DNA from: Patescibacteria group bacterium
Lineage (GTDB): Bacteria; Patescibacteriota; Minisyncoccia; UBA6257; UBA9933
Assembly: GCA_038062875.1 (NCBI GenBank)
Contig: JBBTWF010000001.1
Coordinates: 27,769 to 91,768 of the forward strand
Direction of reading: 5' to 3'
Length of the DNA: 64,000 nucleotides
Positions 4,173 through 50,856 of the stretch are shown in pieces. The translations under genes and the position numbers were made by a program. The notes under the pieces were generated by a model. It saw only the letters and a list, made by a program, of their open reading frames with translations, did no database searches and had not been told where the DNA came from. Within the stretch, counting starts at the first letter, position 1; each line of letters begins with the position of its first letter.

Positions 4173-4706
4173 ATGGAAAAAGAAATAATTAAAAAAATAA
4201 AACAAGAATTTGGTTACAAAAATGATTTAGCCGCGCCTCGGCTCAATAAAATTGTTGTCAATACTGGCGTCGGCCGGCTAAGCCAACAGCCAAATTTTGA
4301 AGAAAAGATTTTACCGGAAATTATCAAGGAATTGTCGTTAATTACCGGTCAAAAACCGTCAGCATCGGTTGCTAAAAAATCAATCGCCGGGTTTAAAACT
4401 AGAATCGGTCAGATTATCGGCCTTAAAACAACATTAAGACGCCGAAAAATGTACGATTTTTTAGAGAGATTAATTAAAATCACTTTGCCGCGAGTAAAGG
4501 ATTTTAGAGGAATTAATCTTAAAAATGTTGATAATGGAGGGAATTTAACCATCGGCTTGAAAGACCAATCGGCATTTTCGGAAATTAATCAGGAGCTATC
4601 AAAAGTTGACTTTGGCTTGGAAATAACTATCGTTAGTAATACCAAGAAAAGAGAAGAAGCGATAGGATTATATAGATTATTAGGAATACCGCTTAAGAGG
4701 GATTAG
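4173..4706 (+). CDS. rplE: 50S ribosomal protein L5
   Basis: MEKEIIKKIKQEFGYKNDLAAPRLNKIVVNTGVG, an L5 N-terminus; the ATG at 4173 is preferred over the upstream in-frame GTG at 4158, which lies inside the hairpin. Confidence 0.9.
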   Translation: MEKEIIKKIKQEFGYKNDLAAPRLNKIVVNTGVGRLSQQPNFEEKILPEIIKELSLITGQKPSASVAKKSIAGFKTRIGQIIGLKTTLRRRKMYDFLERLIKITLPRVKDFRGINLKNVDNGGNLTIGLKDQSAFSEINQELSKVDFGLEITIVSNTKKREEAIGLYRLLGIPLKRD

Positions 4707-4783
4707 AATATAGAATATAGGATTTAGGGATTAAAACCGCCCCTAAATTCTAAATCCTAAATACTAAATTCTTTAAAATTATC
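4707..4783. repeat. Intergenic opposed-heptamer hairpin element (tagaatatagaatataggatttaggg ... ccctaaattctaaatcctaaatactaaattc)
   Basis: Same architecture as 3367-3434; lies between rplE and rpsN. Confidence 0.8.
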
Positions 4784-4969
4784 ATGGCAAAAGCTTCAGT
4801 AATAGCAAGATCCAAGAAAAAACCGAAATTTTCCACCAGGATAACAAACAGGTGCTTTCGTTGTGGCAAAAAACGAGGTTATATGCGCGATTTTGGCATT
4901 TGCCGTATTTGTTTCAGGGAAATGGCGTCAAAAGGAGAAATACCAGGAGTGAAGAAGGCGTCATGGTAA
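4784..4969 (+). CDS. rpsN: 30S ribosomal protein S14, zinc-binding type Z
   Basis: 61 aa with CxxC...CxxC ([20 protein letters not shown]), the short Zn-S14 form. Confidence 0.9.
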
Positions 4970-8469: not shown

Positions 8470-8548
8470 ATTAAGAATATAGAATTTAGAATATAGAATT
8501 TAGGGGCTTAAAATCCTAAATCCTAAATCCTAAATCTTAAATCCTACA
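8470..8548. repeat. Intergenic opposed-heptamer hairpin element (aagaatatagaatttagaatatagaatttagggg ... (tcctaaa)n)
   Basis: Same family as the elements at 3367 and 4707; lies between secY and adk. Confidence 0.8.
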
Positions 8549-9232
8549 TTGATTGCAATTATCTTTTACGGTCCTCCTGGTTCAGGGAAGGGAACTCAAG
8601 CCAGATTAATAGCCGATAAACTCGGTTTAATTCATTTTGATACCGGAAAATATATAGAAAGCGTTGTTCATAATCCAGCAAATAAAAAAAATAAGGAAAT
8701 TCAAAAACAACGGAAAATGTTTGATTCTGGTCTCTTGTGTGAACCCGCTTGGGTGTTGAAAATCATAAAGGAAAGAGTCGAGCAATTGGCCTTAATTGGT
8801 TCGGGCGTTGTTTTCAGCGGTTCGCCTCGCACTTTATTCGAGGCATTTGGAGACAAAAAAAATATCGGTTTAATAAAAATTTTAGAAAAATATTATGGTA
8901 AGAAAAATATTTTTATTTTTAATATTGACATTGCTAAAAAAGAGTCAATAAAAAGAAACAGTAGTCGTTTGATGTGTTCGGTTTGCGGGACTCAACTTCT
9001 CGCCACTTTCAAGAAAATAGCAGAACTTAAAATATGTCCGTTTTGCGGTTCTAAATTGTATCGTCGCACTTTAGATAAATCGGAAATTATCAAAATTCGC
9101 CTAAAAGAATATCAAGAAAGAACTTTACCTATCCCAAAAGAATTAAAAAAACAAGGATATCGGGTTATTCGTATCAACGGCGAACCATTACCAGGGAAAG
9201 TAACGCAATCGATTCTGAAATGGTTATTATAA
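8549..9232 (+). CDS. adk: Adenylate kinase (TTG start) with a Cys4 zinc lid
   Basis: P-loop IIFYGPPGSGKGTQA, lid CSVCG...CPFCGSKLYRR; position after secY. Confidence 0.85.
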   Translation: MIAIIFYGPPGSGKGTQARLIADKLGLIHFDTGKYIESVVHNPANKKNKEIQKQRKMFDSGLLCEPAWVLKIIKERVEQLALIGSGVVFSGSPRTLFEAFGDKKNIGLIKILEKYYGKKNIFIFNIDIAKKESIKRNSSRLMCSVCGTQLLATFKKIAELKICPFCGSKLYRRTLDKSEIIKIRLKEYQERTLPIPKELKKQGYRVIRINGEPLPGKVTQSILKWLL

Positions 9233-12526: not shown

Positions 12527-13783
12527 ATGTTAGACATCAATTTAATCCGTAGCAATCCAGAATTAGTCAAAAAAGGCGTTTCCGCCAAAAATATAAACCC
12601 TCAATTAGTGGACGAGTTTTTGGTCTTAGACAAAGAATGGAGGGAATTGACCGCCAAATTGGATAATTTGCGGGCAGAGCAGAATAAACTAAGCAGTGAA
12701 AGAAAAATTGACGAGGCAAAAGAAAATAAAATAAAAATTAAAGGGATAGAAGATAAATTAAATGAAACAGAAAAACGGCGCGAGGAAATTTTAATGAGTT
12801 TGCCGAATTTGCCGTTTGATGATGTGCCAGTTGGCAAAGACGAAAGTGGTAATGTAGTAATTCGCGAGGTTAATAAAAAACCCGATTTTGATTTTCAGCC
12901 AAAAAACTATTTAGAACTCGCCGAGAAGCTGGGCTTGATTGATATAGAGCGAGCATCTAAAGTTTCCGGCAGTCGGTTCGGTTATCTAAAAAATCAAGCC
13001 GCGCTTTTTGAATTCGCTTTGATAAAATTGGCGATGGATACGGCGGTTGCCGAAGGATTTACGCCGATTGTTCCGCCGGTAATGGTCAAAAGCAAAATGA
13101 TGAAAGCAATGGGATATATTGACCGCCGTGAAGATCAAGACGAAACATATTTTTTAAAAGAAGACGATTTATATTTAGTCGGGACATCCGAACAGTCAAT
13201 CGGCCCGATGCATAGCGATGAAATTTTTAACGAAAAAGAATTACCAAAAAGATATGTCGGATTTTCAACGTGCTTTCGGCGAGAAGCCGGTTCTTACGGA
13301 AAAGATACAAAAGGTATTTTAAGAGTTCATCAATTTGATAAAATCGAGATGTTTAGTTTTTGTGAGCCGGAAAAATCAAAAGAAGAGCACGGGTTGTTAT
13401 TGGGAATAGAAGAAAAATTAATGCAGGCGCTTGGATTGCCATATCGGGTTTTAAGTATTTGTACGGGCGATTTAGGGGGACCGGCAGCGGCAAAATACGA
13501 CATTGAAGTTTGGTTGCCGGGTGAAAATCGCTACCGCGAAACCCATTCCACTTCCAATTGCACCGACTTTCAGGCGCGCCGGTTGAATATAAAATATAAA
13601 CCTAAAACCCAAAACCTAAAACCTAAAACCGATTATGTTCATACTTTGAACGGCACCGCTTTCGCTATCGGCAGAACACTCATCGCTATTATTGAAAACT
13701 TTCAGCAAAAAGACGGCACAATTTTAGTGCCGGAAGTTTTACAAAAATATTTGGGATTTGAGAAAATTGGGCTGTCCAGTTGA
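12527..13783 (+). CDS. serS: Seryl-tRNA synthetase carrying an in-frame heptamer-repeat insertion (KPKTQNLKPKT)
   Basis: N-terminal coiled coil plus class II core (FRREAGSYGKDTKGILRVHQFDKIEMF); the insertion at 13601-13630 is (CCTAAAAC)-type repeats. Confidence 0.9.
   Translation: MLDINLIRSNPELVKKGVSAKNINPQLVDEFLVLDKEWRELTAKLDNLRAEQNKLSSERKIDEAKENKIKIKGIEDKLNETEKRREEILMSLPNLPFDDVPVGKDESGNVVIREVNKKPDFDFQPKNYLELAEKLGLIDIERASKVSGSRFGYLKNQAALFEFALIKLAMDTAVAEGFTPIVPPVMVKSKMMKAMGYIDRREDQDETYFLKEDDLYLVGTSEQSIGPMHSDEIFNEKELPKRYVGFSTCFRREAGSYGKDTKGILRVHQFDKIEMFSFCEPEKSKEEHGLLLGIEEKLMQALGLPYRVLSICTGDLGGPAAAKYDIEVWLPGENRYRETHSTSNCTDFQARRLNIKYKPKTQNLKPKTDYVHTLNGTAFAIGRTLIAIIENFQQKDGTILVPEVLQKYLGFEKIGLSS
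13601..13630. repeat. In-frame tandem repeat cctaaaacccaaaacctaaaacctaaaacc inside serS
   Basis: Same 7-8-mer repeat unit as the intergenic elements; it encodes a KPKTQNLKPKT loop. Confidence 0.85.
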
Positions 13784-13791
13784 CTGGACAG
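13772..13791. terminator. Perfect 20-bp palindrome CTGTCCAGTTGACTGGACAG spanning the serS stop codon, between convergent genes; likely a bidirectional terminator or protein-binding site
   Basis: Palindrome read directly; it shares the core CAGTTGACTG with the palindromes at 20143 and 22014. Confidence 0.5.
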
Positions 13792-17610: not shown

Positions 17611-19701
17611 ATGGATAAAAAAGCCGCCAAAGAACGAATAGAACATCTCAAAAAAACAGTAAATCATCATCGCTATCTTTATCATGTTTTAGACCGTCAA
17701 GAAATATCTGACGCGGCTTTGGATTCTTTAAAAAAAGAACTTTTTGATTTAGAACAAGAATTTCCGGAATTTATCACTTCGGATTCTCCGACTCAAAGAA
17801 TTGGAGGCCAACCGTTAAAACAATTCAAAAAAGTTCGTCATGAAGCGCAGATGCTTTCTTTTAACGACGCTTTTTCCGAGCAGGATATGAGGGATTGGTT
17901 GAAGCGCGTTGAAAATTATCTTGGTTCTAAAATAACCCAAAACCCAAAACCCAAAACCCAAAACCTCTTTTATTGCGAATTAAAAATAGACGGTCTAGCG
18001 ATTGAGCTGGTTTACGAAAACGGCATTTTAACGCAGGGGTCAACTCGAGGAGATGGAATTGTTGGCGAAGATGTGACGCAGAATTTAAAAACTATTGAAG
18101 CGATACCGTTAAAACTAAAAACCAAAAACTTAAAAACTAAAAAACTTGTTGTAAGAGGCGAGGTCTTTATTAAAAAAAAAGAATTTGAAAGGATTAATAA
18201 AGAGCAGATTAAAAAAGGAGAAAAAGTTTTTGCTAATCCGCGTAATCTCGTGGCAGGTTCAATTCGCCAGCTTGACCCGAAAATTACCGCCAGTCGCAAA
18301 TTAGATTCGTATATTTATGATATAGCAACGGATTTAGGCATTGCTGTTCATGAAGAAAAACATAATTTTCTTGAGTCGTTTGGTTTTAAAATTAATTCTC
18401 ATAATAAAGCGGTTGGGTCGTTAGAAGAGGTTTTTAAATTTCGCGACTATTGGGAGAAGCATAGAGATAAATTACCTTACGAAATTGATGGCATTGTGAT
18501 AATTGTTAATGATAATAAAATTTTTGAGGAAGCCGGAGTTATCGGCAAAGCGCCGAGGGGCGCGATTGCTTATAAATTTTCGGCTAAGGAGGCAACGACG
18601 ATTGTTGAAGATATTAAAATCCAAGTTGGTCGGACCGGCGCGTTAACGCCCGTAGCTATTTTAAGGCCCATAGAATTGGGCGGGATAAGAATTTCGCACG
18701 CTACTTTGCATAATTTTGGCCAGATTAAACGGCTGGAATTGAAAATCGGCGATACTGTTATTATTTCAAGGGCAGGAGACGTAATTCCCCAAGTAAGTAA
18801 AGTATTAAAGGATTTGCGAAACGGGAAAGAAAAAGAATTTAAAATACCCGCTAATTGTCCAGTTGACGATTCAAAAGTAATAAAGCAGGGGGAGATTTAT
18901 CGTTGTTCTAATAAAGATTGCGGCGCTAGAAATAGGGAATCGTTGCGTCATTTTGTTTCTAGGGCGGCTTTTGATATTAGGGGATTGGGAGGTAAAATTA
19001 TAGACCGATTTCTTGACGAGGGTTTGATCAGCGACGCGGCTGATATTTTTACTCTTGAAGAAGGGGACATCGCCGGTCTTGAAAGATTCGGCGAAAAATC
19101 CAGTCAAAACATAATTTCTGAGATTCGGTCCCGTAAAATTATAAATTTAGCGAGGTTTATTTATGGTTTGGGGATTTTACATATCGGTGAAGAGACGGCT
19201 TTGCTTCTTGCGAAAGCAGTGTCAAGTATTAAGTATTCCGCCTTCGTGGCTGCTTCGGTGGGCAAGCAAGTATTAAGGCCTGTTCAAATATCGGAAATTT
19301 TAAAAAACTTTTCATTAGAAAAACTTCAAGAAATTCCCGATATCGGGCCTAAAGTGGCGCAGAGTATTTATGATTGGTTTCATAATAAGCGAAGTGTTGA
19401 GTTTTTAAAGAAATTGGAAAAAGTTGGAATTCAAATAGAAATTCCCAAACTAAAAACTTCCGCCAGAGGCGGATCCGCCTTCGGCGGAAAAACCTTCGTA
19501 TTAACCGGCAGTTTGGAATCAATGAGTCGTGAACAGGCAAAAGAAAAAATCCGTTCGCTGGGCGGCGATATTTCAGAATCAGTTAGCAAGAAAACCGATT
19601 ATTTAGTGACTGGTTTTGAACCTGGCTCAAAATACGAAAAAGCGAATAAATTAGGAGTGAAAGTGATTAATGAAAAAGAGTTGTTGGAATTACTTGGTTA
19701 A
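17611..19701 (+). CDS. ligA: NAD-dependent DNA ligase LigA with three in-frame repeat insertions
   Basis: Adenylation site KIDG (CELKIDGLAIELVYENG), OB fold, Zn finger (CPVDDSKV...CSNKDC), HhH and BRCT domains. Insertions lie at about 17934-17967, 18111-18145 and 19459-19490. Confidence 0.95.
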   Translation: MDKKAAKERIEHLKKTVNHHRYLYHVLDRQEISDAALDSLKKELFDLEQEFPEFITSDSPTQRIGGQPLKQFKKVRHEAQMLSFNDAFSEQDMRDWLKRVENYLGSKITQNPKPKTQNLFYCELKIDGLAIELVYENGILTQGSTRGDGIVGEDVTQNLKTIEAIPLKLKTKNLKTKKLVVRGEVFIKKKEFERINKEQIKKGEKVFANPRNLVAGSIRQLDPKITASRKLDSYIYDIATDLGIAVHEEKHNFLESFGFKINSHNKAVGSLEEVFKFRDYWEKHRDKLPYEIDGIVIIVNDNKIFEEAGVIGKAPRGAIAYKFSAKEATTIVEDIKIQVGRTGALTPVAILRPIELGGIRISHATLHNFGQIKRLELKIGDTVIISRAGDVIPQVSKVLKDLRNGKEKEFKIPANCPVDDSKVIKQGEIYRCSNKDCGARNRESLRHFVSRAAFDIRGLGGKIIDRFLDEGLISDAADIFTLEEGDIAGLERFGEKSSQNIISEIRSRKIINLARFIYGLGILHIGEETALLLAKAVSSIKYSAFVAASVGKQVLRPVQISEILKNFSLEKLQEIPDIGPKVAQSIYDWFHNKRSVEFLKKLEKVGIQIEIPKLKTSARGGSAFGGKTFVLTGSLESMSREQAKEKIRSLGGDISESVSKKTDYLVTGFEPGSKYEKANKLGVKVINEKELLELLG
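17934..17967. repeat. In-frame tandem repeat (AACCCAAAAC)n inside ligA (NPKPKTQNL)
   Basis: Direct repeat read from sequence. Confidence 0.8.
18111..18145. repeat. In-frame tandem repeat (CTAAAAAC/CAAAAAC)n inside ligA (LKLKTKNLKTKKL)
   Basis: Direct repeat read from sequence. Confidence 0.8.
19459..19490. repeat. GC-rich palindromic in-frame mini-insertion TCCGCCAGAGGCGGATCCGCCTTCGGCGGA in ligA (family copy 3)
   Basis: Identical to the rpsH copy; preceded by ctaaaaact. Confidence 0.85.
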
Positions 19702-19733: not shown

Positions 19734-20033
19734 ATGGAAAAACTTAGTAAAAAAACTTTAGAATATTTGGCTGGATTAGCGAGGATTGAATTAGATAAAA
19801 AGGGCGAGGATAAGTTATTAAGGGATTTACAAAAAATCTTCGATTATTTTGAGGAACTTAAAGAAGTTAATACGGAGAATGTTGAATCGATGACTGGCGG
19901 TAATATTTTTTCGGAAAATGTTTTTCGCGAAGATATTCAAAACTTAAAGCTAAAAGCTAAAAACTCAAAGCTAATTGAGGTGTTCCCGGAAGAAAAAGAC
20001 GGATTTTTGAAAGTGCCGCCTGTTTTTGAATAA
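19734..20033 (+). CDS. gatC: Asp/Glu-tRNA amidotransferase subunit C, with a repeat-derived LKLKAKNSKL segment
   Basis: 99 aa; LAGLARIELDKKGEDKLLRDLQKIFDYFEEL is a GatC signature; tandem repeat at 19940-19975. Confidence 0.8.
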   Translation: MEKLSKKTLEYLAGLARIELDKKGEDKLLRDLQKIFDYFEELKEVNTENVESMTGGNIFSENVFREDIQNLKLKAKNSKLIEVFPEEKDGFLKVPPVFE

Positions 20034-20084: not shown

Positions 20085-20130
20085 AGGCGCTCTAACGCAT
20101 TAGAGCGCTCTAACCGGTTAGAGCGCTTGA
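20085..20130. promoter_or_regulatory. Compound palindrome GCGCTCTAAC-GC-ATTAGAGCGCTCTAA-CC-GGTTAGAGCGC: three overlapping inverted copies of a 10-mer, a candidate operator or attenuator
   Basis: Read directly; the central TTAGAGCGCTCTAA is itself palindromic. It sits 65 bp upstream of the Cys-rich ORF. Confidence 0.5.
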
Positions 20131-20142
20131 TATAATTTGGCT

Positions 20143-20162
20143 GGTGCAGTTGACTGCACCAC
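20143..20162. repeat. Palindrome TGGTGCAGTTGACTGCACCA, the upstream flank of the Cys-rich gene
   Basis: An identical 18-bp core (GGTGCAGTTGACTGCACC) recurs at 22015-22032 just after the same gene. Confidence 0.85.
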
Positions 20163-20193
20163 TTCTATATAATTATCAAAATTGAATTAGACT

Positions 20194-21972
20194 ATGAACC
20201 CAGAAACAAAAATTTGCCAGAATTGTAAAAAGGATTTTACAATTGAACCCGACGATTTTTTGTTTTACGAAAAAATAAAAGTCCCAGCGCCGACTTTTTG
20301 CGAGGAATGCCGGGAACAGCGAAGAATTGCTTTTCGCAATGAACGCAGTTTATACAAAAGAAAATGCGATTTATGCGGAGAAATCGTGGTTTCTCGGATT
20401 TCGTCGGACAAACTCTATCCGATGTATTGTAAAAAATGTTGGTGGTCAGACAAATGGGACGCGTTGAGTTATGGAAGAGAATATGATTTTAACAAGACCT
20501 TTTTTGAACAGTTTAAGGACTTATTGTTTTCAGCACCTCATATTTCGCTTTTGAGCAGTAATACGGTCAATAGCGAATGGGTTAATCAGGAAACCGATGA
20601 TAAAAATTGTTATTTAAATATAGGCGGACATTACAACGAGGATTCGGCTTATAACACTTACGAACTTTACGGCAAAGATTGTTTTGATAATTTCTGGATT
20701 TTCAAAAGCGAACTTTGTTATGAAAATATAAATTGCGAGCGGTGTTATAAAACTTTATTTTCCAGGGATTGTTTTGATTGCGTAGATACTGTTTTATCTT
20801 TTGATTGCCGAAATTGTCAAAATATCTTTGGTTGCGCCGGCTTAAGAAATAAGCAATATCATATTTTTAACAAGCCAGTTTCTAAAGAAGAATATCAAAA
20901 ATTTTTAAAGGACAATCCGCTGGCTTCGCGCAAAAATCTTTTATCATTCAAAGAAAAAGTCAAACAAATTTGGTTGTCAGCGCTTTATCGTGATAAATTT
21001 ATAGTGAAATCAGTTAATTCTTGGGGAAATTTTATCAATGAATCAAAAAAATGCCAAAATTGTTGGAATGCTGAAAAAGTGGAAGATTGTAAAAATTTAT
21101 ACGTAGCCGCGTCGTTAAAAGACACTTATGATGCGACATCTTACGGCTGGGGAGAGTTATGTTACGAAGGCGCTCATTCGGTTGGTTTGTACAACTCAAA
21201 ATTTTTTCTTTATAGCGTTGGAGGAGGTAAAGCGGGAAACAGACAATCATCATTTTTAGAATATTGTTATGCGGTTATGGACAGCCATAATTGTTTCGGT
21301 TGCGCCAATTTAAGAAATAAAGAATATTGTATTTTAAATAAACAGTATACTAAAGAAGAATACGAAGCGCTTATCCCCAAAATCAAAAAACATATGGAAG
21401 AAATGCCGTATATTGACAAAAGGGGTAGAATTTATAAATACGGTGAATTTTTCCCGATTGAATTTTCACCATTCGGTTATAATGAAACCGCAGGGCAAGA
21501 TTATTATCCTTTGACTCGCGAACAAGTTTTAGAAAACGGTTATTCTTGGAACGATTATGAATCAGATATGAAATATGAATTTTCCGATTACGAAATTCCC
21601 GATGATATTGGCAGTGTTAAAGACGATATTTTGGACAAAATTTTAAAATGCGAGGTCTCGAGCAAAGCGTATAAAATTATTCCGATGGAACTTGAGTTTT
21701 ACAGACGAATGGGATTGCCGATTCCGCGCCGTGCGCCGCTCCAACGGCACAAAGACAGAATTAGCCAATTATTACCGAGGAAATTATTTAAACGGCAATG
21801 CCAATGTGAAGGAGGGCAAAGCGTAAAGCGCGAATCGCAAAGCGTATATAAAAATACAATCAAGCATTTTCATGGAGACGATTCTTGTCCAAATCAAATT
21901 AACACTCCGTACGCGCCCGATAGACCGGAGATTGTATACTGTGAAAAGTGCTATTTAGCAGAAGTAGTATAA
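20194..21972 (+). CDS. Hypothetical 592-aa cysteine-rich protein with about 10 CxxC pairs and an internal repeat, inserted between gatC and gatA
   Basis: ORF read directly; no family recognised. N-terminal CQNCKK...FCEECREQRR...CDLCGE...YCKKCWW. The internal motif C-x-C-x2-LRNK-x-Y-x-I-x-NK-x4-EEY occurs twice (CFGCANLRNKEYCILNKQYTKEEYEAL and CAGLRNKQYHIFNKPVSKEEYQKF). Confidence 0.6.
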   Translation: MNPETKICQNCKKDFTIEPDDFLFYEKIKVPAPTFCEECREQRRIAFRNERSLYKRKCDLCGEIVVSRISSDKLYPMYCKKCWWSDKWDALSYGREYDFNKTFFEQFKDLLFSAPHISLLSSNTVNSEWVNQETDDKNCYLNIGGHYNEDSAYNTYELYGKDCFDNFWIFKSELCYENINCERCYKTLFSRDCFDCVDTVLSFDCRNCQNIFGCAGLRNKQYHIFNKPVSKEEYQKFLKDNPLASRKNLLSFKEKVKQIWLSALYRDKFIVKSVNSWGNFINESKKCQNCWNAEKVEDCKNLYVAASLKDTYDATSYGWGELCYEGAHSVGLYNSKFFLYSVGGGKAGNRQSSFLEYCYAVMDSHNCFGCANLRNKEYCILNKQYTKEEYEALIPKIKKHMEEMPYIDKRGRIYKYGEFFPIEFSPFGYNETAGQDYYPLTREQVLENGYSWNDYESDMKYEFSDYEIPDDIGSVKDDILDKILKCEVSSKAYKIIPMELEFYRRMGLPIPRRAPLQRHKDRISQLLPRKLFKRQCQCEGGQSVKRESQSVYKNTIKHFHGDDSCPNQINTPYAPDRPEIVYCEKCYLAEVV

Positions 21973-22013
21973 TAGAGACGAAAGGTAAGAGATAAAAAAA
22001 ATAAAAAATATAG

Positions 22014-22033
22014 CGGTGCAGTTGACTGCACCA
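22014..22033. repeat. Palindrome CGGTGCAGTTGACTGCACCAG, the downstream flank of the Cys-rich gene
   Basis: Same 18-bp core as the palindrome at 20143. Confidence 0.85.
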
Positions 22034-22043
22034 GTGGTAAGGA

Positions 22044-23486
22044 ATGATAAAAAAAATGGATTTACAGAATCTGACAATTAAAAAATTCCATCAAGGACTG
22101 ATAAATAAAGAATTTTCCGCTTCGGAAATTACAAAAGAGTTTTTTGATTATATTGACGGAAAAGATTCTAATATTAACGCTTATTTGCGTTTAACAAAGG
22201 ATTTGGCTATGTCGCAGGCCAAAGCGGTTGACACGGATTTGGCTACTGGCAAGAATTTGGATATTTTGGCCGGCGCGCCATTGGCGATTAAGGATAATAT
22301 TTTGATTGAAGGCGAGTTAACAACGGCAGCTTCCAAAATTTTGGAAAATTATCGCGCGAGCTATGACGCAACTGTAATTAAAAAACTTAAAGATAAGGGC
22401 GCGGTTTTTCTCGGCAAGACCAATTTAGATGAATTCGCGATGGGCTCTTCAACGGAAAATTCCGCTTTTGGGCCGACAAAAAATCCTTTTGATTTGGAGC
22501 GGGTTCCAGGCGGTTCATCTGGCGGTTCAGCCGCGGCAGTGGCAGTTGATATGGCATTAGCGGCTCTCGGTTCTGATACTGGCGGTTCAATCAGGCAACC
22601 GGCAAGTTTCTGCGGAGTGGTCGGTTTGAAGCCGACTTATGGCGCTGTTTCTCGGTACGGATTAATAGCAATGGCTTCAAGTTTGGACCAAATTGGGCCT
22701 ATTACTAAAACCGTTGGGGATGCGGAGATTTTATTTGATGTTATTAAAGGAAAAGATAAATTAGATTCAACTTCTATTAAACCTAAAACCCAAAACCTAA
22801 AACCTAAAACCTCAAATTATACCATCGGACTGCCGAAAGAATATTTTGCTGGCGGATTAGATAAAGATGTTGCTATCGCCGTTGACGAAGCGATTAAAAA
22901 TTTGAAAGGCATGGGGATTAAATTCAAAGAAATAAGTTTACCCCATACTAAATACGCGCTTTCTTGTTATTACATTATTATGCCGGCGGAAGTAAGCGCC
23001 AACCTCGCCCGTTTTGACGGCATTAGATATCCACAACCTAAAACCTACAATCTAAAACCCAAAACCTTATTGGATGTTTATTTAAAAACCCGGGGCGAGG
23101 GATTTGGCGAAGAAGTAAAACGAAGAATTATTTTAGGAACATTTGTTTTGTCGTCAGGATATTACGACGCTTATTATACCAAGGCGCAAAAAGTCCGTAA
23201 TTTGATAAAACAGGATTTTGATAAAGCATTTAAAGAAGTTGACGTGATTTTGACTCCGGTCGCGCCGACTCCGGCTTTCAAAATCAATGAAAAAACAAAA
23301 GATCCGCTTTCAATGTATTTGTCGGATATTTTCACAATTCCGGTTAATCTGGCGGGTCTTCCGGCAATTTCAATACCAGTTAACCTAAAACCTAAATTAC
23401 CAGTTGGGTTTCAGTTGATTGGCAATTATTTTCGCGAAGCGGATATTTTAGAAATAGGAAAGCGGTACGAAAATGAGAATTATTAA
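22044..23486 (+). CDS. gatA: Glutamyl-tRNA(Gln) amidotransferase subunit A (amidase signature family) with three in-frame heptamer-repeat insertions
   Basis: Amidase signature GGSSGGSAAAVA...GSDTGGSIRQPASFCG. Insertions at 22780-22813 (IKPKTQNLKPKTS), 23034-23066 (PQPKTYNLKPKT) and 23381-23400. Confidence 0.9.
   Translation: MIKKMDLQNLTIKKFHQGLINKEFSASEITKEFFDYIDGKDSNINAYLRLTKDLAMSQAKAVDTDLATGKNLDILAGAPLAIKDNILIEGELTTAASKILENYRASYDATVIKKLKDKGAVFLGKTNLDEFAMGSSTENSAFGPTKNPFDLERVPGGSSGGSAAAVAVDMALAALGSDTGGSIRQPASFCGVVGLKPTYGAVSRYGLIAMASSLDQIGPITKTVGDAEILFDVIKGKDKLDSTSIKPKTQNLKPKTSNYTIGLPKEYFAGGLDKDVAIAVDEAIKNLKGMGIKFKEISLPHTKYALSCYYIIMPAEVSANLARFDGIRYPQPKTYNLKPKTLLDVYLKTRGEGFGEEVKRRIILGTFVLSSGYYDAYYTKAQKVRNLIKQDFDKAFKEVDVILTPVAPTPAFKINEKTKDPLSMYLSDIFTIPVNLAGLPAISIPVNLKPKLPVGFQLIGNYFREADILEIGKRYENENY
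22780..22813. repeat. In-frame (CCTAAAAC)n repeat in gatA
   Basis: Read directly. Confidence 0.8.
23034..23066. repeat. In-frame degenerate (CCTAAAAC)n repeat in gatA
   Basis: Read directly. Confidence 0.75.
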
Positions 23487-25030: not shown

Positions 25031-25036
25031 GAGCTA

Positions 25037-25072
25037 AGCCCAGAAGTTGAATATTCAACTTCTGGGCTTTTT
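25037..25072 (+). terminator. Rho-independent terminator: 15-bp perfect stem AAGCCCAGAAGTTGA/TCAACTTCTGGGCTT followed by a T-run
   Basis: Read directly; it closes the HhH-gene plus repeat-array unit. Confidence 0.8.
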
Positions 25073-26168: not shown

Positions 26169-27557
26169 ATGAATAAAAAAAGAGTAAAAATGGCGGATAT
26201 TGTAAGGACGACGCGGCCGACTCATTCGGTTGATCCAGAGCGCAAAGCCAGTTTCTTGGTGGAAAACAAACACGTTCAAGAATCAAAAAATAAAAAACAC
26301 GAAGATAAAATTTTAAATGAATTAAGCAAAAAAGTCGAGTATTTTGAAAAAGAAGAGGTTGACGTATTTAACAAAGAAGACGCTCATCGCAAAAAAAGAT
26401 TTTTTTCCTTAAGAAAACCAAAATGGAAAACTTTTATTTTGTTGATTTTGATATTAATTTTAATCGGAGGCGGAGCTTATTGCGCTGTTACATTTCTTCC
26501 GCGGGCGGAAATTAAAATTATTACAGAAAAATCCAATTGGGAATATAACGATTCAGTAATCGCGAGTAAGAAAATTAGCGGAGTTGATTTAGCCGGAAAA
26601 AAAATTCCCGCGGAAGTTTTTTCTCAGAAAAAAAACAACAATCTTTTGTTTCCGGCGACCGGGACTAAAGATGTTAAGCAAAAAGCAATCGGCAAAATCA
26701 TAATTTATAACGCTTACAGTTCAGAGTCGCAGTTGCTAATCGCCAATACTCGTTTTCTGGCTCCTGATGGGAAAATTTTCCGTCTAACCAACAAAATTAT
26801 CGTTCCGGGAGCTAAAATCGTTGAAGGAAAAATTATTTCTTCAAGTATTGAGGCGGGAGTGATGGCTGACGCGGCTGGTGAAGAATACAATATTAAACCC
26901 GTTGAATATTTTTCTATTCCCGGTTTTAAGGATTCGGCGAAATACAAAGGATTTTACGCTGAATCAAAAAATTCAATGACTGGCGGTTTTATAGGAAAGA
27001 TGGCCGTGCCGACCGATGAGAACATTAAGCAGGCAAAAGAAAAAAACAGGCAAATTCTGCAACAAGCGTTGAATTCTTTTATATATTCGCAAATACCGGA
27101 GGGTTTTAAGATTATTGAGGGAGCCGAACAATTTAATATTATAAAAGAAACCGTTAATAAAGAAACCGACGCGGTCGGAAATTTTGCGGTCTTCGGCGAA
27201 GCCGAACTTTCAATAACCGCTTTTAAAGAAGAAGACGCGAAGAATTTAATAGTTAGTTTAGCGAAAGGAGAATTAGGCAAGGAATTTGAGCCAAAGGAAT
27301 ATCAATTGAATTACGGAATCAGCAGGGCAGATATTAATAACGGTTCGATTTCATTCCCAGTTGATTTTCAAGGAGTTTTTTGGCAAGCAATAGATATTGG
27401 AACATTCAGAGAATCAATAAAGAATAAAAGCGAATCGGAGTTGAGAGGCGCGGTTTTTTCTTTGCCTAAGGTGGAAAAAGTAGAGGTTTCTTTCTGGCCT
27501 TTTTGGGTTAATCAGGTGCCAGATAATACTGATAGGATAAAAGTGGTAATAGAATAA
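26169..27557 (+). CDS. Hypothetical membrane-anchored protein (basic cytoplasmic N-terminus, one TM helix, large extracytoplasmic domain)
   Basis: ORF structure only; no family recognised. Confidence 0.45.
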   Translation: MNKKRVKMADIVRTTRPTHSVDPERKASFLVENKHVQESKNKKHEDKILNELSKKVEYFEKEEVDVFNKEDAHRKKRFFSLRKPKWKTFILLILILILIGGGAYCAVTFLPRAEIKIITEKSNWEYNDSVIASKKISGVDLAGKKIPAEVFSQKKNNNLLFPATGTKDVKQKAIGKIIIYNAYSSESQLLIANTRFLAPDGKIFRLTNKIIVPGAKIVEGKIISSSIEAGVMADAAGEEYNIKPVEYFSIPGFKDSAKYKGFYAESKNSMTGGFIGKMAVPTDENIKQAKEKNRQILQQALNSFIYSQIPEGFKIIEGAEQFNIIKETVNKETDAVGNFAVFGEAELSITAFKEEDAKNLIVSLAKGELGKEFEPKEYQLNYGISRADINNGSISFPVDFQGVFWQAIDIGTFRESIKNKSESELRGAVFSLPKVEKVEVSFWPFWVNQVPDNTDRIKVVIE

Positions 27558-33203: not shown

Positions 33204-34502
33204 ATGAACAGTTATATTATTAACGGAGGGAGAAAATTAAAAGGAGAGGTGATTATTAATCCGTCAAAGAATTCGGCAACCGCTATTTTGATTGCTTCGT
33301 TGTTAAACAAGAAAAAAACGACTATTGCCAATCTTCCTAAAATAGAAGAGGTTTTTAGAATAATTGAGGTTTTGGAAAGTATTGGCGTTAAAACAAAATG
33401 GAAAGGGAAAGCGCTTGAGATAACCCCTTCCGCAAAATTTACTCTTAATAAAATAAATATAAAAGCCGCCATTAGAACACGAAGTATAATTTTATTTATA
33501 GGCGCTTTAGTTCATAAATTTGGTTCTTTTGGTTTGCCAATGTCTGGAGGATGCAAACTTGGAGTAAGAACGATAATGCCCCATATTTACGCTCTGGAAA
33601 ATTTTGGAATTAAAATAAAGATGCTTTGCGATAAATTAAACGTAAGCCATAAAAAACTTCGTCCTGCGGGAGAAATTATAATGTATGAATCCGGAGACAC
33701 CGCGACTGAAAACGCCATTCTTGCCGCTTCGCTGATACCAGGAAAGACCGTTATAAAATTCGCCTCGTCAAATTATCAGGTTCAAGATTTATGTTATTTT
33801 TTAAGTAAATTGGGAGCGCGCATTGACGGAATTGGTTCAACAACTTTAACTATCTTAGGAAAAAGAAAATTATCCAAGGACATTAAATATTATTTGACCG
33901 AAGACCCGATTGAATCAATGCTTTTTCTTGCGGCGGCAGTTGTTACTAAATCGTCAATTATTATAAAAAGATGTCCCATTGAGTTTTTAGAGATAGAGCT
34001 TTTGAAGTTGAAAAAAATGGGATTTAGGTATAAGCTCTTAAGAAGTTATAAGGCAAGAAACGGATATGGAAAATTAGTGGATATTAGGACTTTTCCTTCA
34101 AATTTAACAGCCCCGGTTGAGAAGCTTTACGGAAGGCCGTTTCCAGGATTAAACATAGACAATCTTCCTTTTTTTGTTCCGATTTCCACGCAAGCCAAAG
34201 GGGAAACGCTGATTCACGATTGGGTTTACGAGAATAGGGCGATTTATTACGCTGAATTGAATCGGCTTGGAGCCAATGTGCGGCTTGCCGACCCGCACCG
34301 TATTTTTATAACTGGACCGACAAAACTGGAAGGAGCGGAAATTATGTGTCCGCCGGCGCTTCGGCCTTCGGCGATTATTTTAGTGGCGATGCTGGCGGCA
34401 AAAGGAAAATCGATTCTTAGAAACACTTATGCGATTGAGAGAGGATACGAAGATTTAGTTGGAAGATTGAAGAAATTAGAAGCAGATATAAAGAGAATAT
34501 AG
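33204..34502 (+). CDS. murA: UDP-N-acetylglucosamine 1-carboxyvinyltransferase
   Basis: EPT fold; active-site Cys in LPMSGGCKLG; a cell-wall gene neighbourhood. Confidence 0.85.
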   Translation: MNSYIINGGRKLKGEVIINPSKNSATAILIASLLNKKKTTIANLPKIEEVFRIIEVLESIGVKTKWKGKALEITPSAKFTLNKINIKAAIRTRSIILFIGALVHKFGSFGLPMSGGCKLGVRTIMPHIYALENFGIKIKMLCDKLNVSHKKLRPAGEIIMYESGDTATENAILAASLIPGKTVIKFASSNYQVQDLCYFLSKLGARIDGIGSTTLTILGKRKLSKDIKYYLTEDPIESMLFLAAAVVTKSSIIIKRCPIEFLEIELLKLKKMGFRYKLLRSYKARNGYGKLVDIRTFPSNLTAPVEKLYGRPFPGLNIDNLPFFVPISTQAKGETLIHDWVYENRAIYYAELNRLGANVRLADPHRIFITGPTKLEGAEIMCPPALRPSAIILVAMLAAKGKSILRNTYAIERGYEDLVGRLKKLEADIKRI

Positions 34503-34568
34503 AATTTAGAATATAGAATTTAGGGAACGAAAATCCTAAATCCTAAATCCTAAATCCTAAATCCTAAA
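34503..34568. repeat. Intergenic opposed-heptamer hairpin element (tagaatttagaatatagaatttaggg ... (tcctaaa)x5)
   Basis: Same family as 3367 and 4707; between murA and mreB-1. Confidence 0.8.
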
Positions 34569-47404: not shown

Positions 47405-50030
47405 TCAAACCCATTCTGAGATTTTAGAAAATTTAAAATCAAGTGAAAGCGGATTAACGCAGGATGAGGCGGAGAAACGTTTAAAAGAATATGGTTTTAA
47501 TGAGTTGTCGGAAGTTAAACTTGACAATATTTTTATTATTTTTCTTCGGCAGTTTCAAAGTTCGTTGATTTATATTTTATTTGGCGCGGCTTTGGTTGTT
47601 TTTTATTTAGGCGGGGTAGTTGATGGATTAATTATTTTAGCGGTTCTTTTATTTAACGCTTTTGTCGGTACTCTTCAAGAAGGTAAAGCGCAAAACACTT
47701 TATCGGCTTTAAAAAAATTTATTAAAACCAAAGCCGTGGTTCTGCGCAACGGAAAAGAAATTATTGTTTCTGATGAACAGCTTGCGCCGGGCGATATTAT
47801 TATTCTTCAGGAAGGAGAGAAAATTCCGGCTGATGCCAGAGTAATTGTTTCTAATAATCTTAAAATTGACCAAGCTGCCTTGACCGGCGAATCAGAGTCG
47901 GTTTTTAAAATAGCAGAAATTCTTTCCCGTAAGGATTTACAAATCGCTGACCAGAAAAATATGGTTTTTAAAGGAACTTATATTGTTTCCGGAAATGGTC
48001 AGGCAGTGGCGGTTAATACCGGCGTCAATACGATAATTGGAAAAATCGGCCAAAAAATTGCCTTTATTGACACGGAAATACCGCTTAAAAAAGATATTCG
48101 TCAGCTTTCGCGATTTATTATTTTTACGGTCGCTTTAATCAGCGTTGTTTTATTTATCGCAGGTGTTTTTTTCGGAAAATCTTTAATAGAAATGTTTAAG
48201 GTTGTGGTTGCTCTTTCGGTTTCTGTTATCCCCGAGGGCTTGCCGATAGTTATTACTTTGGTCTTGGCTACCGGCGTCTGGCGGATGGCAAAACGCAATG
48301 CCTTAGTTAAACGGCTTCAAGCGGTTGAGGCCTTAGGCCAGACAAAAATCATCGCTCTCGATAAGACCGGAACTATCACAAAGAATGAATTGGCGGTTAA
48401 AAGAGTTTTTATTAATGGAAAATTTTTTGAAATTGGCGGAGTCGGTTATGAGCCAAAAGGAGAAATTTATTACGGCAAGCAATTAATTTCTCCGCCGGAT
48501 TTTCCGGAATTGATTTTGGCAGGTAAAATAGCGGCTTTTTGTTCTAATGCTTATGTTTTTTATTCAGAAGAAGACGAGACCTATAAAATCAGCGGTGATC
48601 CGACTGAAGCCGCGATTTTAGTTTTCAGTAAAAAAATGGGTTTTCAAAAAGAAATTATTGAAAAACAGCACCCACTTATTAAAGAAATCCCTTTTGATTA
48701 TAAAATAAAATATCGTCTGACTTTGCGGCAGAAAGATGAAAGGGGATTTTTATCAGTCATCGGCGCGCCAGAAGAGGTGCTTTTTTTATGCGAACTTACC
48801 AAAAAAGAAAAAGAGGATTTAGAAAGTATTTTTCACAAGATGTTAGCCGAAGGATTGCGGGTTTTGGCTTTTGCCTATAAAGAAGTCGGTCTTAAAAGAA
48901 AAATTGAGCTCGAGAAAACGGAATTTATTTTCGGCGGATTTTTCGGAATGAAGGACGGCTTGAAAGAAGAAGCCAAGAAAGCGATTAAACAAGCGCAGGA
49001 GGCGGGTATTAGAATAATAATGATTACCGGAGACCATAAAATAACCGCTCAGGTAATCGCCAAAGAAGCGGGAATTTTTAAAGATAACGACGAGGTTTTG
49101 ACCGGCAAAGATTTAGAAGAAATTTCTGAAGAAGAATTAAGTTTAAAACTGCCAAGGGTTTCGGTTTTCGCCCGAGTGACGCCTGAACATAAATTAAGAA
49201 TTATTGAGGCCTTTCGGAAAAGAAAAGAAATTATCGCGATGACCGGCGATGGCGTTAATGACGCGCCTTCTTTGGTGGCAGCTGATTTGGGAATAGCAAT
49301 GGGCAAAATCGGCACTGAAGTTGCCAAAGAAGCGTCTGATATTATTCTTTTGGACGATAATTTTGAAACTATCATTATAGCCATTGAAGAAGGAAGAAGT
49401 ATTTATAAGACGATTAAAAAAGTAATTACGTATCTTTTTTCCACAAGTTTAGGCGAGGTTTTAACTATTAGCATCGCGCTTTTTTTCGGTTATCCTTTGC
49501 CGCTTTTAGCCAGCCAAATTATTTGGCTTAATTTCGTCACGGACGGTTTTTTAACCGTGGCTTTAGCAATGGAGCCGAAAGAAAAAGGATTACTCCGGGC
49601 GAAATTTAAAAGACCAGGCAGATTTTTAGTTGATTCATTGATGATTCAGCGGATGTTCGTGATGGCTTTGCCAATGTCAATCGGCGCATTCTTTGTTTTT
49701 CAGAGATATTTAGATTTTGATTTAACTAAAGCCATGACGATGTGTCTGACAACTTTGGCGATTTTTCAATGGTTTAATGCCTTTAATTGCCGTTCGGAAA
49801 ACAAGTCAATTTTTCGAATGAATTTTTTCTCAAACAAATGGTTGATTGGAGCAATGTTTGTCGTAATTTCTTTTCAATTATTGGCAGTTTATCATCCAAT
49901 AATGCAGAGAATTTTACATACCGCCGCTTTGGAATTATCTGATTGGCTGATTGCTATCGCTATTGCTTTTTCTATTATAATATTTGAAGAAGTCAGAAAG
50001 GCAATTTACAGAAAGATTTTTAAGGATTAA
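47394..50030 (+). CDS. P-type cation-transporting ATPase (type II, Ca2+/Mg2+-like)
   Basis: DKTGTIT phosphorylation site, TGES actuator, MITGDH and GDGVNDAPSL; 10 TM segments. Confidence 0.9.
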   Translation: MFYNQTHSEILENLKSSESGLTQDEAEKRLKEYGFNELSEVKLDNIFIIFLRQFQSSLIYILFGAALVVFYLGGVVDGLIILAVLLFNAFVGTLQEGKAQNTLSALKKFIKTKAVVLRNGKEIIVSDEQLAPGDIIILQEGEKIPADARVIVSNNLKIDQAALTGESESVFKIAEILSRKDLQIADQKNMVFKGTYIVSGNGQAVAVNTGVNTIIGKIGQKIAFIDTEIPLKKDIRQLSRFIIFTVALISVVLFIAGVFFGKSLIEMFKVVVALSVSVIPEGLPIVITLVLATGVWRMAKRNALVKRLQAVEALGQTKIIALDKTGTITKNELAVKRVFINGKFFEIGGVGYEPKGEIYYGKQLISPPDFPELILAGKIAAFCSNAYVFYSEEDETYKISGDPTEAAILVFSKKMGFQKEIIEKQHPLIKEIPFDYKIKYRLTLRQKDERGFLSVIGAPEEVLFLCELTKKEKEDLESIFHKMLAEGLRVLAFAYKEVGLKRKIELEKTEFIFGGFFGMKDGLKEEAKKAIKQAQEAGIRIIMITGDHKITAQVIAKEAGIFKDNDEVLTGKDLEEISEEELSLKLPRVSVFARVTPEHKLRIIEAFRKRKEIIAMTGDGVNDAPSLVAADLGIAMGKIGTEVAKEASDIILLDDNFETIIIAIEEGRSIYKTIKKVITYLFSTSLGEVLTISIALFFGYPLPLLASQIIWLNFVTDGFLTVALAMEPKEKGLLRAKFKRPGRFLVDSLMIQRMFVMALPMSIGAFFVFQRYLDFDLTKAMTMCLTTLAIFQWFNAFNCRSENKSIFRMNFFSNKWLIGAMFVVISFQLLAVYHPIMQRILHTAALELSDWLIAIAIAFSIIIFEEVRKAIYRKIFKD

Positions 50031-50049
50031 ACTATTAATTAGATTACAT

Positions 50050-50856
50050 ATGAAGAAGCTCATAGTTTTTAACTGGAAAATGGCGCCCGACTCGTTAAAA
50101 AAAGCGAAGCAACTTTTTAATTTAGCCCTAAATTCTTCCGCCAAAGGCGGGAAATCTCATATTCTAAATTCTGAAATTGTTGTCTGCCCGCCGTTTATTT
50201 ATTTATCAGAACTCGTTGGTCTTATTAATAAGACCAAAATTAAATTAGGAGCGCAAAACGTTTTTTGGGAAAACCCATTGGTTGGTGGAGGCGTTTATAC
50301 CGGTGAAATCTCGCCAAAAATGCTGAAAAATTTAGGAGTGGAATACGCGATTATTGGCCATTCCGAACGCCGGAAATATTTAAACGAAACCGATGAAATA
50401 ATTAATAAAAAGGTTTTAGCGGCACTAAAAGCGGGGTTGAAAGTGATTTTATGTATTGGCGAGGATTTATCAATTCGCAAACGTGGCAAAAAAGCAGTTG
50501 AAAAATTTATTAAAAACCAATTAGGAAAAGACTTAAAAAATTTATCCCTAAATTCTATCCGCCAGCTGGCGGACTCTATTCTAAATTCTCGTCTTATTAT
50601 TGCTTACGAACCCATCTGGTCCATCGGCACCGGCCATTCTGATACTCCGCAGGACGCCTTGGAAATAATAAAATTCATTAAAGAAACCCTCAATTCTCAA
50701 TTCTCAATTCTCAATTCTAAAATATTATACGGCGGCTCTGTCGATTCCAAAAACATCGTTAAATTTTTAAAACATCCCGAAATCGACGGCGCGCTCATCG
50801 GCCACGCGAGCTTGAAAACGGGGGAAATCAGGAAAATTTTTAAAGAACTTTATTAA
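50050..50856 (+). CDS. tpiA: Triosephosphate isomerase with several in-frame repeat insertions
   Basis: FNWKM start motif, IIGHSERR, YEPIWSIGTG, YGGSV. Insertions: the palindrome at 50217-50238 and ctaaattct-type repeats at about 50540-50590 and 50690-50725. Confidence 0.85.
   Translation: MKKLIVFNWKMAPDSLKKAKQLFNLALNSSAKGGKSHILNSEIVVCPPFIYLSELVGLINKTKIKLGAQNVFWENPLVGGGVYTGEISPKMLKNLGVEYAIIGHSERRKYLNETDEIINKKVLAALKAGLKVILCIGEDLSIRKRGKKAVEKFIKNQLGKDLKNLSLNSIRQLADSILNSRLIIAYEPIWSIGTGHSDTPQDALEIIKFIKETLNSQFSILNSKILYGGSVDSKNIVKFLKHPEIDGALIGHASLKTGEIRKIFKELY
50217..50238. repeat. 22-bp perfect palindrome TTGGTCTTATTAATAAGACCAA in frame in tpiA (LVGLINKTKI)
   Basis: An identical 22-mer occurs at 60657-60678 in pgk. 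Confidence 0.9.

Follow-up and report, generated by a model that had tools for sequence, protein, structure and literature searches.

The repetitive extragenic palindromes of Enterobacteria and Pseudomonas (REP/BIME elements), the Rickettsia palindromic elements (RPE), which are 100–150 nt long, inserted in frame and add a peptide segment, and the attC sites of integrons, which are 57–141 nt long and composed of R''/L''-L'/R' boxes with an inverse core RYYYAAC and a core GTTRRRY, are the described systems closest to the elements reported here. The centre of these elements, AGTTRACT, also recalls the E. coli trp operator, which we take to be TGTACTAGTTAACTAGTAC, presumably useful as a lead only. 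The elements occur in a 64,000-nt stretch of DNA from a Patescibacteria group bacterium, a groundwater organism of the Parcubacteria/Paceibacteria type (assembly GCA_038062875.1, contig JBBTWF010000001.1, positions 27,769–91,768 of the forward strand), referred to here as the window, in which an open reading frame (ORF) for a 592-residue protein, ORF592, separates gatC from gatA, and two identical short dyad elements stand ahead of ORF592 and of gatA. We read these dyad elements, with a probability of about 45%, as cis-regulatory sites, the putative operators of the clade's TrpR-like (YerC/YecD-type) helix-turn-helix regulator.

An insertion between gatC and gatA

The genes and elements concerned are as follows.

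13772–13791, + strand: third hairpin (CTGTCCAG-ttga-CTGGACAG), where serS and a DUF3750 gene converge
17611–19701, + strand: ligA
19734–20033, + strand: gatC, 99 residues, split from gatA (TIGR00135, E = 4.4e-21; PF02686 on identical contigs)
20087–20127: double overlapping palindrome, with four TTAGAGCGC arms at 20087–20126 in two overlapping 9–10-bp hairpins
20128–20136, + strand: perfect extended −10 TGATATAAT, with a predicted transcription start at about 20143, the first base of copy 1
20142–20161, + strand: hairpin copy 1 (TGGTGCAG-ttga-CTGCACCA), 33 nt before the start codon (ATG) of ORF592
20194–21972, + strand: ORF592, 592 residues, between gatC and gatA
22015–22032, + strand: hairpin copy 2 (GGTGCAG-ttga-CTGCACC), 23 nt before gatA (start 22056)
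22056–23486, + strand: gatA (TIGR00132, E = 2.1e-185), with an in-frame ATG alternative at 22044

The initial annotation, made from the DNA letters alone, had placed a 592-residue multi-CxxC reading frame within a split gatC–gatA pair, and its coordinates and gene families are confirmed. The two flanking genes are GatCAB orthologs, both scoring above the cut-offs of their models (TIGR00135, 75 bits against 47.1; TIGR00132, 617 bits against 481), with the gatA start at 22056 given by the gene caller on identical contigs; they are not contiguous as in a GatCAB operon, the gap of 2,022 nt being occupied by ORF592. In composition, ORF592 (GC content 0.359; GC content at third codon positions, GC3, 0.336) resembles the neighbouring genes, and the scanned genes around it in the window either have housekeeping functions or match nothing in Pfam. 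The same order, with ORF592 between gatC and gatA, is reported for all eight contigs that encode an identical protein (three places listed).

Serving as relatives are the loci of the six closest GatA proteins (75–79% identity; L088, L089, L090, L139, L140 and L141). gatC is next to gatA in five of the six: the genes overlap by 8 nt in both L088 and L089, and are separated by 1 nt in L141, where the ligA-x-gatC-gatA context is like that of the window, by 43 nt in L139 and by 54 nt in L140. These overlaps and short gaps agree with the earlier description of a 1.9-kb unit inserted into a normally adjacent pair and, because five of the six nearest GatA relatives retain adjacency, comparative gene order gives good support to the contiguous pair being ancestral and the insertion of ORF592 derived. 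In the remaining relative, L090 (GatA identity 77%), a gene for a 158-residue GNAT acetyltransferase (4469–4945) lies between gatC and gatA; this is an independent insert, so that the clade shows no fewer than two invasions of the junction.

The ancestral gatC and gatA would have abutted and been translationally coupled, with a copy of ORF592 later moving between them. It is well supported that ORF592 is one copy of a core, strongly conserved, lineage-restricted family that was relocated into the junction, and likewise that it has long resided there, with a native composition and one arrangement shared by all contigs of the population, and that no recognisable mobile element carries it. A literature search on split gatC–gatA gene order found nothing relevant. 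The locus is a clean natural case in which the coupled subunit genes of one enzyme (GatC and GatA) have been uncoupled by insertion, twice independently within a clade, and it shows the re-punctuation of a broken operon in such genomes.

Dyad elements and promoter signals at the junction

The 18-mer GGTGCAGTTGACTGCACC occurs at 20143–20160 and 22015–22032 and nowhere else in the 64 kb (0 in 100 shuffles). The two copies are in direct orientation, their identity reaching 19 nt (...CCA), and each has two arms of 7 bp (8 bp in copy 1) on either side of an asymmetric TTGA, the reverse complement differing at two positions. The initial annotation had described identical, perfect palindromes on either side of the gene, of which the identity and the positions hold, the perfect symmetry does not, and the end of the first copy moves from 20162 to 20160. 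The related third palindrome that it had noticed at the serS stop is found at 13772–13791. The serS reading frame ends inside this hairpin (...GLSS-TGA), with the TGA stop in the loop (ORF end 13783), so that an essential gene takes its final codons and its stop codon from the element. All three copies in the window carry TTGA on the coding strand. A scan of 13–26 kb against Rfam gave no family at the hairpins. The hairpin-loop sequence TTGACT was considered as a −35 box and rejected, the spacers to the nearest TATAAT being 12 and 14 nt.

Located immediately ahead of copy 1 is the extended −10 TGATATAAT. The window has eight occurrences of the motif TGNTATAAT, where 3.3 would be expected, and in six of these cases a gene start in the right orientation follows within 140 nt; these statistics favour the predicted promoter before ORF592 being real. 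The −10 ends 6 nt before copy 1, so the ORF592 transcript would start with the stem-loop or operator; a similar spacing of about 6 nt between a TAAATA box and a palindrome is also seen before gatC in L089 and L140.

Further upstream lies a palindromic complex, described earlier as a triple palindrome, in which the palindromic nature stands and the number does not: it comprises four TTAGAGCGC arms, against 0.47 expected, in two overlapping hairpins. This double palindrome is flagged as terminator-like (11 pairs; RNA fold z = −4.7), and part of it recurs in L090 (9375–9393). It would act as a terminator-like structure for ligA–gatC, as a second operator over the −35 region, or as both.

A family of elements in related genomes

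The window copies belong to a family with the consensus GT[CG]CA[AG]-T[TC][GA]A-[CT]TG[GC]AC, found at 21 sites in seven contigs of the clade, with 11 of 24 columns invariant; about 916 kb of loci from other Patescibacteria contain none. In the form GTCCAAT[TC][GA]ATTGGAC, L089 carries six copies, two of them upstream of a TrpR-family gene and an inverted tandem pair before an ABC exporter, and a further palindrome pair abuts gatC; L140, from a different assembly, has a palindrome pair at the same three places. Both loci share the order RRF, TrpR-like gene, ABC exporter, gatC and gatA, and in both the palindrome at the regulator gene ends about 20 nt before the TTATAAT of that gene. Inside the 3′ end of gatC in L090, 75 nt upstream of the GNAT insert, is GTCCAGTTAACTGGAC, with the length of GatC unchanged. 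The sequence CAGTTGATTGG in gatA (23412), with its L090 counterpart, was rejected as a family member, as it encodes the conserved GFQLIG motif.

In metagenomes, the exact 18-mer was found in 45 DNA stretches, most of which lie in contigs of 52–73% GC or are true terminators of unrelated taxa and are therefore uninformative. The three informative contigs, of similar coverage, are from Hainich H51. The first (L136) has the exact element after glyA and after a second TrpR-like gene; the second (L123) has it twice inside the ORF of a 551-residue membrane protein, where it encodes SVQLTAP and SVQSTAP; and the third (L097) has it in a 490-bp convergent intergenic region near gltX, with GTCCAAT-type copies. 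Copy density is 3 in 64 kb in the window, 6 in 11 kb in L089 and at least 9 in 9.3 kb of the H51 contigs. Three copies lie within ORFs (one in L090 gatC, two in L123) and the serS copy overlaps a stop codon, so the family is not strictly extragenic in the REP sense. Generic operon punctuation by a palindrome in hundreds of copies had been named as the alternative to a cassette; the elements are indeed dispersed beside unrelated genes, at 21 sites rather than hundreds.

TrpR-like genes are found in L089, L136 and L140 and in no other locus retrieved, and all three loci bear palindromes. The TrpR-like protein of L136 is 39% identical to that of the other lineage, and its gene adjoins the GGTGCAG palindrome subtype; the TrpR-like neighbours match PF01371 (E = 2e-9 to 5e-8) and the structure 3KOR (E = 6e-4). 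A literature search found no description of REP-like elements in the candidate phyla radiation (CPR), of these dyad elements or of a role for the TrpR-like regulator.

Elsewhere, the unrelated high-GC contig Ga0182739_1000639 (L108 and L098; GC 67%) contains at least seven copies of GTGCAGT[TC][GT]ACTGCAC, and in the low-GC contig L109 the 18-mer lies inside an 88-bp tandem repeat (1729–1922); other organisms, too, have thus recruited this core as a repeat.

Proposed operators of a TrpR-like regulator and the rival explanations

Support for the elements being operators comes from the invariance of their core, from the confinement of the TrpR-like gene to palindrome-bearing loci and from their positions. 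In L089 and L140 alike, sites stand ahead of the same three units, and a PF01371 gene adjoins an element in two independent lineages, the palindrome subtypes of which differ. Dyad sites at promoters, including that of the regulator's own gene, are seen in the relatives L089, L140 and L136 only. Taken together, the site-adjacent genes (gatCA, serS, gltX, glyA, the ABC exporter and the regulator) look like a regulon for amino-acid and aminoacyl-tRNA supply. A dedicated regulated module, offered in the initial annotation as an alternative to a mobile unit, is plausible, given that ORF592 has its own extended −10 and that related palindromes precede gatC in relatives. The YerC-like structures 3KOR, 3FRW and 3G1C are deposited as 'possible' or 'putative' Trp repressors only, and we know of no function assigned to the solved structures of this type.

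Copy 1 would stand at about +1 of the ORF592 transcript and copy 2 sits just before gatA; the insertion would thus have left both genes with the element by which gatCA would be governed in relatives. gatC would remain with ligA upstream, closed off by the TTAGAGCGC double hairpin. Once transcribed, the elements would fold as a stem-loop at the 5′ end of the mRNA.

Several observations weigh against operators. Searches (tblastn) with both TrpR-like proteins found nothing in the 64-kb window, which leaves the regulator a candidate for this genome. No strong promoter is seen directly upstream of copy 2 and, as none there is as good as that before ORF592, gatA may be read from the ORF592 promoter through copy 2. 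The dyad symmetry survives two-sided changes at 6 of 10 pairs, some of them in the outer flanks, which are not conserved; covariation is 0.437 against 0.165 shuffled (0/500), and sliding the partner destroys the signal; and at all three sites in L140 the first unit is internally asymmetric and the second matches its reverse complement exactly. A base-paired hairpin would predict this pattern, and independent protein half-sites would not. Copies are also present at convergent gene ends (serS/DUF3750, and three in L097), where there is no promoter to regulate, as well as inside ORFs (three: one in the gatC of L090 and two in L123). For the window elements we infer transcription start, co-transcription and protein binding from sequence.

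In a rival explanation the elements are small dispersed repeats of the REP/BIME kind with no dedicated regulator, acting mainly as RNA stem-loops that protect mRNA 3′ or 5′ ends and insulate neighbouring cistrons, or as single-stranded DNA hairpins, an explanation that we regard as possible, if on the unlikely side. Such repeats would spread or be homogenised by a palindrome-specific mechanism, and the pair flanking ORF592 would punctuate the new three-gene arrangement. The compensatory symmetry extends to the variable outer flanks, the tandem units of L089 and L140 have perfect 16–20-bp long-range complementarity with three different mirrored bases at one position, and L123 2466–2508 has one G–T (G·U-compatible) mismatch; yet the core sequence itself, beyond the structure, is conserved across genomes with 75–79% GatA identity. 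The copies at convergent 3′ ends (serS, and three in L097), the great variation in copy density between related genomes and the presence of TTGA on the coding strand in three of three window copies would likewise suit REP-like hairpins, whereas the positions before the same three units kept in L089 and L140, one of them upstream of the regulator's −10 and hence outside that gene's transcript, and the repeated proximity to a TrpR-like gene in two independent lineages would not. The copy in L090 gatC replaces sequence with the length unchanged, and selection rather than insertion is therefore indicated. No RAYT-type (REP-associated tyrosine) transposase turned up in the 64-kb window, no search aimed at RAYT having been made. 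Operators rank first and regulator-independent REP-like hairpins second, and the two are not exclusive, because an operator at +1 also forms a 5′ stem-loop in the transcript. The putative operators, tiny dyad elements found clade-wide and connected with a TrpR-like regulator as well as with genes for aminoacyl-tRNA supply, provide a testable handle on transcriptional regulation in Patescibacteria.

It is improbable that the hairpins are intrinsic terminators, each ending an upstream transcript (gatC, ORF592 or serS). The GC-rich stems of 7–8 bp lie downstream of stop codons, a consensus scan flags copy 1 and, on the minus strand, copy 2, and in the unrelated low-GC contigs L095, L110, L113, L121 and L124 the 18-mer is a classical A-tract/T-tract terminator; however, none of the three window copies is followed by a + strand T-run (tails ACTTCTATAT, AGTGGTAAGG and GGAAGATTTA), unlike the genuine window terminators at 25036–25069 and 53246–53272, so plain terminators are unlikely. 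Copy 1 moreover lies downstream of a perfect extended −10, and copies in relatives lie inside ORFs and abut start codons.

Least probable of all is the mobile or cassette-like insertion bounded by identical palindromes that had been proposed at the outset, in which site-specific or hairpin-directed recombination, like that of integron attC sites or IS200/IS605 elements, would have transferred ORF592 together with one hairpin and left the direct 18–19-nt repeats as recombination or duplication scars: the direct orientation and 19-nt identity of the copies, the lack of a fixed genomic home for the ORF592 family and the receipt of a different gene by the L090 junction, with a family palindrome 75 nt upstream of that gene, are compatible with it, but identical copies are usual at unrelated, non-cassette sites (after glyA, near gltX, in the membrane-protein ORF, and before the ABC exporter and TrpR-like gene), so the identity of the flanking pair is no evidence for a cassette, and the hairpin flanks no ORF592 ortholog elsewhere (0 of 79 loci, and none of five close orthologs). 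The element is only 18–20 nt long, its GTTGACT misfits the integron core GTTRRRY (C at the third R), and the CTCTAAC and GTTAGAG of the other palindrome are each one base off integron cores; the L090 GNAT insert has no second, downstream copy, and no integron integrase was seen among the neighbours scanned, the window ORFs having been scanned in part. Nor does ORF592 behave as the cassette-like cargo that had been suggested, being native in composition and conserved like GatA, with orthologs 60–74% identical across many Patescibacteria lineages, and its family is nearly absent from viral contigs (one partial match).

The ORF592 protein

ORF592 contains exactly ten CxxC pairs, starting at C8, C36, C58, C79, C181, C193, C205, C287, C367 and C583, where about ten had been counted before. 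The internal duplication described earlier is present as GCAGLRNKQYHIFNKPVSKEEY (residues 213–234) and GCANLRNKEYCILNKQYTKEEY (residues 369–390), with the consensus G-C-x2-LRNK-x-Y-x-I-x-NK-x4-EEY, the start of which reads G-C and not C-x-C. Within the core, CxxC pairs at a 12-residue spacing (181/184, 193/196 and 205/208) are family-wide, and the four cysteines of finger 1 are 98–100% conserved across the family.

Searches of ORF592 against Pfam, NCBIfam, PADLOC and PDB sequences gave no match, and those against PHROGs gave weak matches to families of unknown function (best E = 6e-4); a profile of 87 family members against PDB sequences returned LIM-like noise (E = 0.19). Pfam matches among the 87 members (E ≤ 0.01) are to zf_Tbcl_2 (PF23477; 39/87) and zf_Tbcl (PF13451; 22/87) and to no other model, with ORF592 itself below threshold for both.

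An AlphaFold2 model of ORF592, based on the 87-sequence alignment (41% mean column identity), has a predicted local distance difference test score (pLDDT) of 88.1 and a predicted template modelling score (pTM) of 0.90, and supersedes an earlier run with 30 close homologs (pLDDT 68). The N terminus is predicted to form two zinc fingers, the first of the treble-clef type, followed by a core modelled as a two-lobed, Cys-laddered β-solenoid, each lobe of which is closed by an LRNK...EEY helix. After the solenoid the model places the strongly conserved stretch YGEFFP-x-E-x-SPFGYNET, then a third finger, which is degenerate, and at the C terminus a zinc ribbon. The coils of the predicted β-solenoid are superposable on those of solved solenoids; a Foldseek search of the PDB gave no match, and no solved structure fits the whole protein. 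As modelled, the architecture is new, with parts from known fold classes. ORF592 is probably a cytoplasmic multi-zinc protein, a binding scaffold more than an enzyme of a known class.

The ORF592 family and its genomic contexts

ORF592 has at least 7,996 homologs, every named one of which is from Patescibacteria lineages, and the best are 60–74% identical over the full length, a conservation similar to that of GatA (71–79% identity). When 1.84 billion representatives were searched with a profile, 4,581 clusters (50% identity) passed E ≤ 1e-3 and 1,975 passed E ≤ 1e-30, with lengths of 540–600 residues in nearly all cases. A scan of viral contigs gave one partial match only, and the family is therefore not phage-borne. 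The initial annotation had allowed for a common, annotated enzyme family: this family is common, and carries no annotation. A literature search on the protein family and on DUF8128 (see below) found no description.

Genomic contexts were compared in 79 GTDB loci (L001–L079). None of gatC, gatA and ligA is near the ORF592 homologs in these loci, and orthologs with 70–74% identity stand in five unrelated contexts, with gat genes in none, which speaks against the tRNA- or amidotransferase-associated factor envisaged earlier. By its contexts ORF592 is neither gat-linked nor accessory cargo, and the family has no fixed genomic home. The 79 loci contain 185 full-length family copies, all in the same direction as the query copy, with two or more copies in 59% of the loci and a maximum of seven; these seven lie in a 13.8-kb locus (more if truncated end copies are included), in very small genomes. 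Many neighbouring copies overlap by 1 nt or sit less than 50 nt apart, and many of those in arrays are translationally coupled through the 1-nt overlap. The paralogs of a tandem array are co-directional and 29–47% identical (for example, in L008, L027, L041 and L072).

Clustering of the flanking ORFs yields one recurrent neighbour, the DUF8128 family, the longer members of which carry a VirD4/TraG-type coupling ATPase domain. This DUF8128/VirD4-like gene is present in 24 of the 79 loci, directly adjacent on the same strand in about 15; the family loci contain 39 copies of it in 916 kb, and control loci 1 copy in 131 kb. A gene with Sigma70_r4 and HARE-HTH domains recurs in seven family loci. 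Neither neighbour is found in the 64-kb window, where the ORF at 26169–27557 was considered as a DUF8128 homolog and rejected (BLASTP E = 2). In a survey of 2,918 Patescibacteria genomes published in 2025, 5,713 VirD4-like coupling proteins are reported, most of them at a distance from virB4, and the ORF592 family is not mentioned (PMC12102498).

The zinc β-solenoid proteins could work with the orphan VirD4-like/DUF8128 coupling ATPases as diversified translocated substrates or adaptors, effector-like and in keeping with an episymbiotic lifestyle; another possibility is that they assemble into a metal-laddered filament in the cytoplasm. The copy at the gatC–gatA junction would then be the housekeeping founder of the family. 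We consider it rather unlikely, though worth stating, that the ORF592 family is an unrecognised major Patescibacteria system and that, separately, the palindromes are a new class of in-frame-tolerant miniature repeats doubling as operators for TrpR-like regulators of aminoacyl-tRNA supply genes (gatCA, serS, gltX and glyA). The family is among the larger uncharacterised ones of the phylum and, being amplified and constrained, with a confident model and a VirD4-like neighbour, is a good target for biochemistry.

Palindromes unrelated in sequence to those of the window stand directly after ORF592 orthologs in L084 (7775–7811) and L091 (4945–4970). One of them consists of two adjacent hairpins with shared arms (GCTATGC-tata-GCATAGC / CGCTATGA-cgcg-TCATAGCG), a layout like that at 20087–20127 of the window.

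Other repeats in the window

A second perfect palindrome, TTGGTCTTATTAATAAGACCAA, is located inside the genes of triosephosphate isomerase (TPI; 49984–50856; PF00121, E = 1e-72), at 50216–50237, and phosphoglycerate kinase (PGK; 60337–61506; PF00162, E = 5e-114), at 60654–60679, and encodes GLINKTK both times; it could be an intragenic operator (a cre-like roadblock) or an in-frame palindromic element. Near-identical AT-rich intergenic elements at 8470–8550 and 34490–34565 consist of (TAGAATT)n followed by (CTAAATC)n, which would pair, with G·U wobbles, only on a minus-strand transcript, and a 34-nt, 94% match to the AT-rich element is present in L123 of Hainich H51 (2006–2039). The terminator at 25036–25069 is canonical, with a 15-bp stem AAGCCCAGAAGTTGA-atat-TCAACTTCTGGGCTT followed by TTTTAATTTTT; its score of 25.3 bits to Rfam Teg23 (gathering score 166) is probably due to chance.

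Comparison with known systems

The Pfam families zf_Tbcl and zf_Tbcl_2 contain 'probable treble clef' proteins, and no Pfam or NCBIfam model spans the 590-residue architecture of ORF592. Cys-rich β-solenoids such as the Tenebrio antifreeze protein and the CsgA-like curli repeats share 4–10% identity with it, a resemblance of fold class and not homology, and ORF592 differs from curli and antifreeze proteins in having no N-terminal signal peptide visible by eye in its sequence. As a family, it resembles the tandem VirB2 pilin arrays of Patescibacteria, which are likewise tandemly amplified, strongly diverged paralogs in very small genomes with a link to type-IV-secretion-related genes, orphan VirD4-like coupling proteins being common in the phylum (PMC12102498). 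The pilins are small and secreted, whereas the ORF592 family comprises large zinc proteins of another family, and its neighbour is the orphan DUF8128/VirD4-like gene, not virB4.

The junction itself shares with integron attC cassettes a single promoter-proximal ORF, hairpin-forming repeats at its bounds and one orientation, and departs from them in having a simple 18–20-nt hairpin, no array and an ORF with its own predicted promoter. With TrpR-family operators the elements have in common dyad sites of about 18 bp, the central AGTTRACT, tandem arrangement and a position before the regulator's own gene; their half-site departs from CTAG, binding is putative, and the regulator was not found in the window. 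Like RPE, they include frame-preserving palindromes in coding sequence (SVQLTAP, SVQSTAP and GVQLTGQ, with GLINKTK in TPI and PGK for the second window palindrome), but the GatC of L090, the only alignable case, keeps its protein length.

As dispersed short palindromes (21 sites in seven contigs against 0 in 916 kb of other lineages), the elements are closest in form to REP/BIME, which are also short, GC-richer, imperfect palindromes in many copies at gene boundaries within and between operons, often in inverted tandem pairs, with conserved stems in which compensatory change preserves dyad symmetry. The window-type elements differ in being much shorter (16–22 nt), in having three intragenic, in-frame copies and in being clade-specific, with two coexisting subtypes that stand beside a gene for a TrpR-like regulator.

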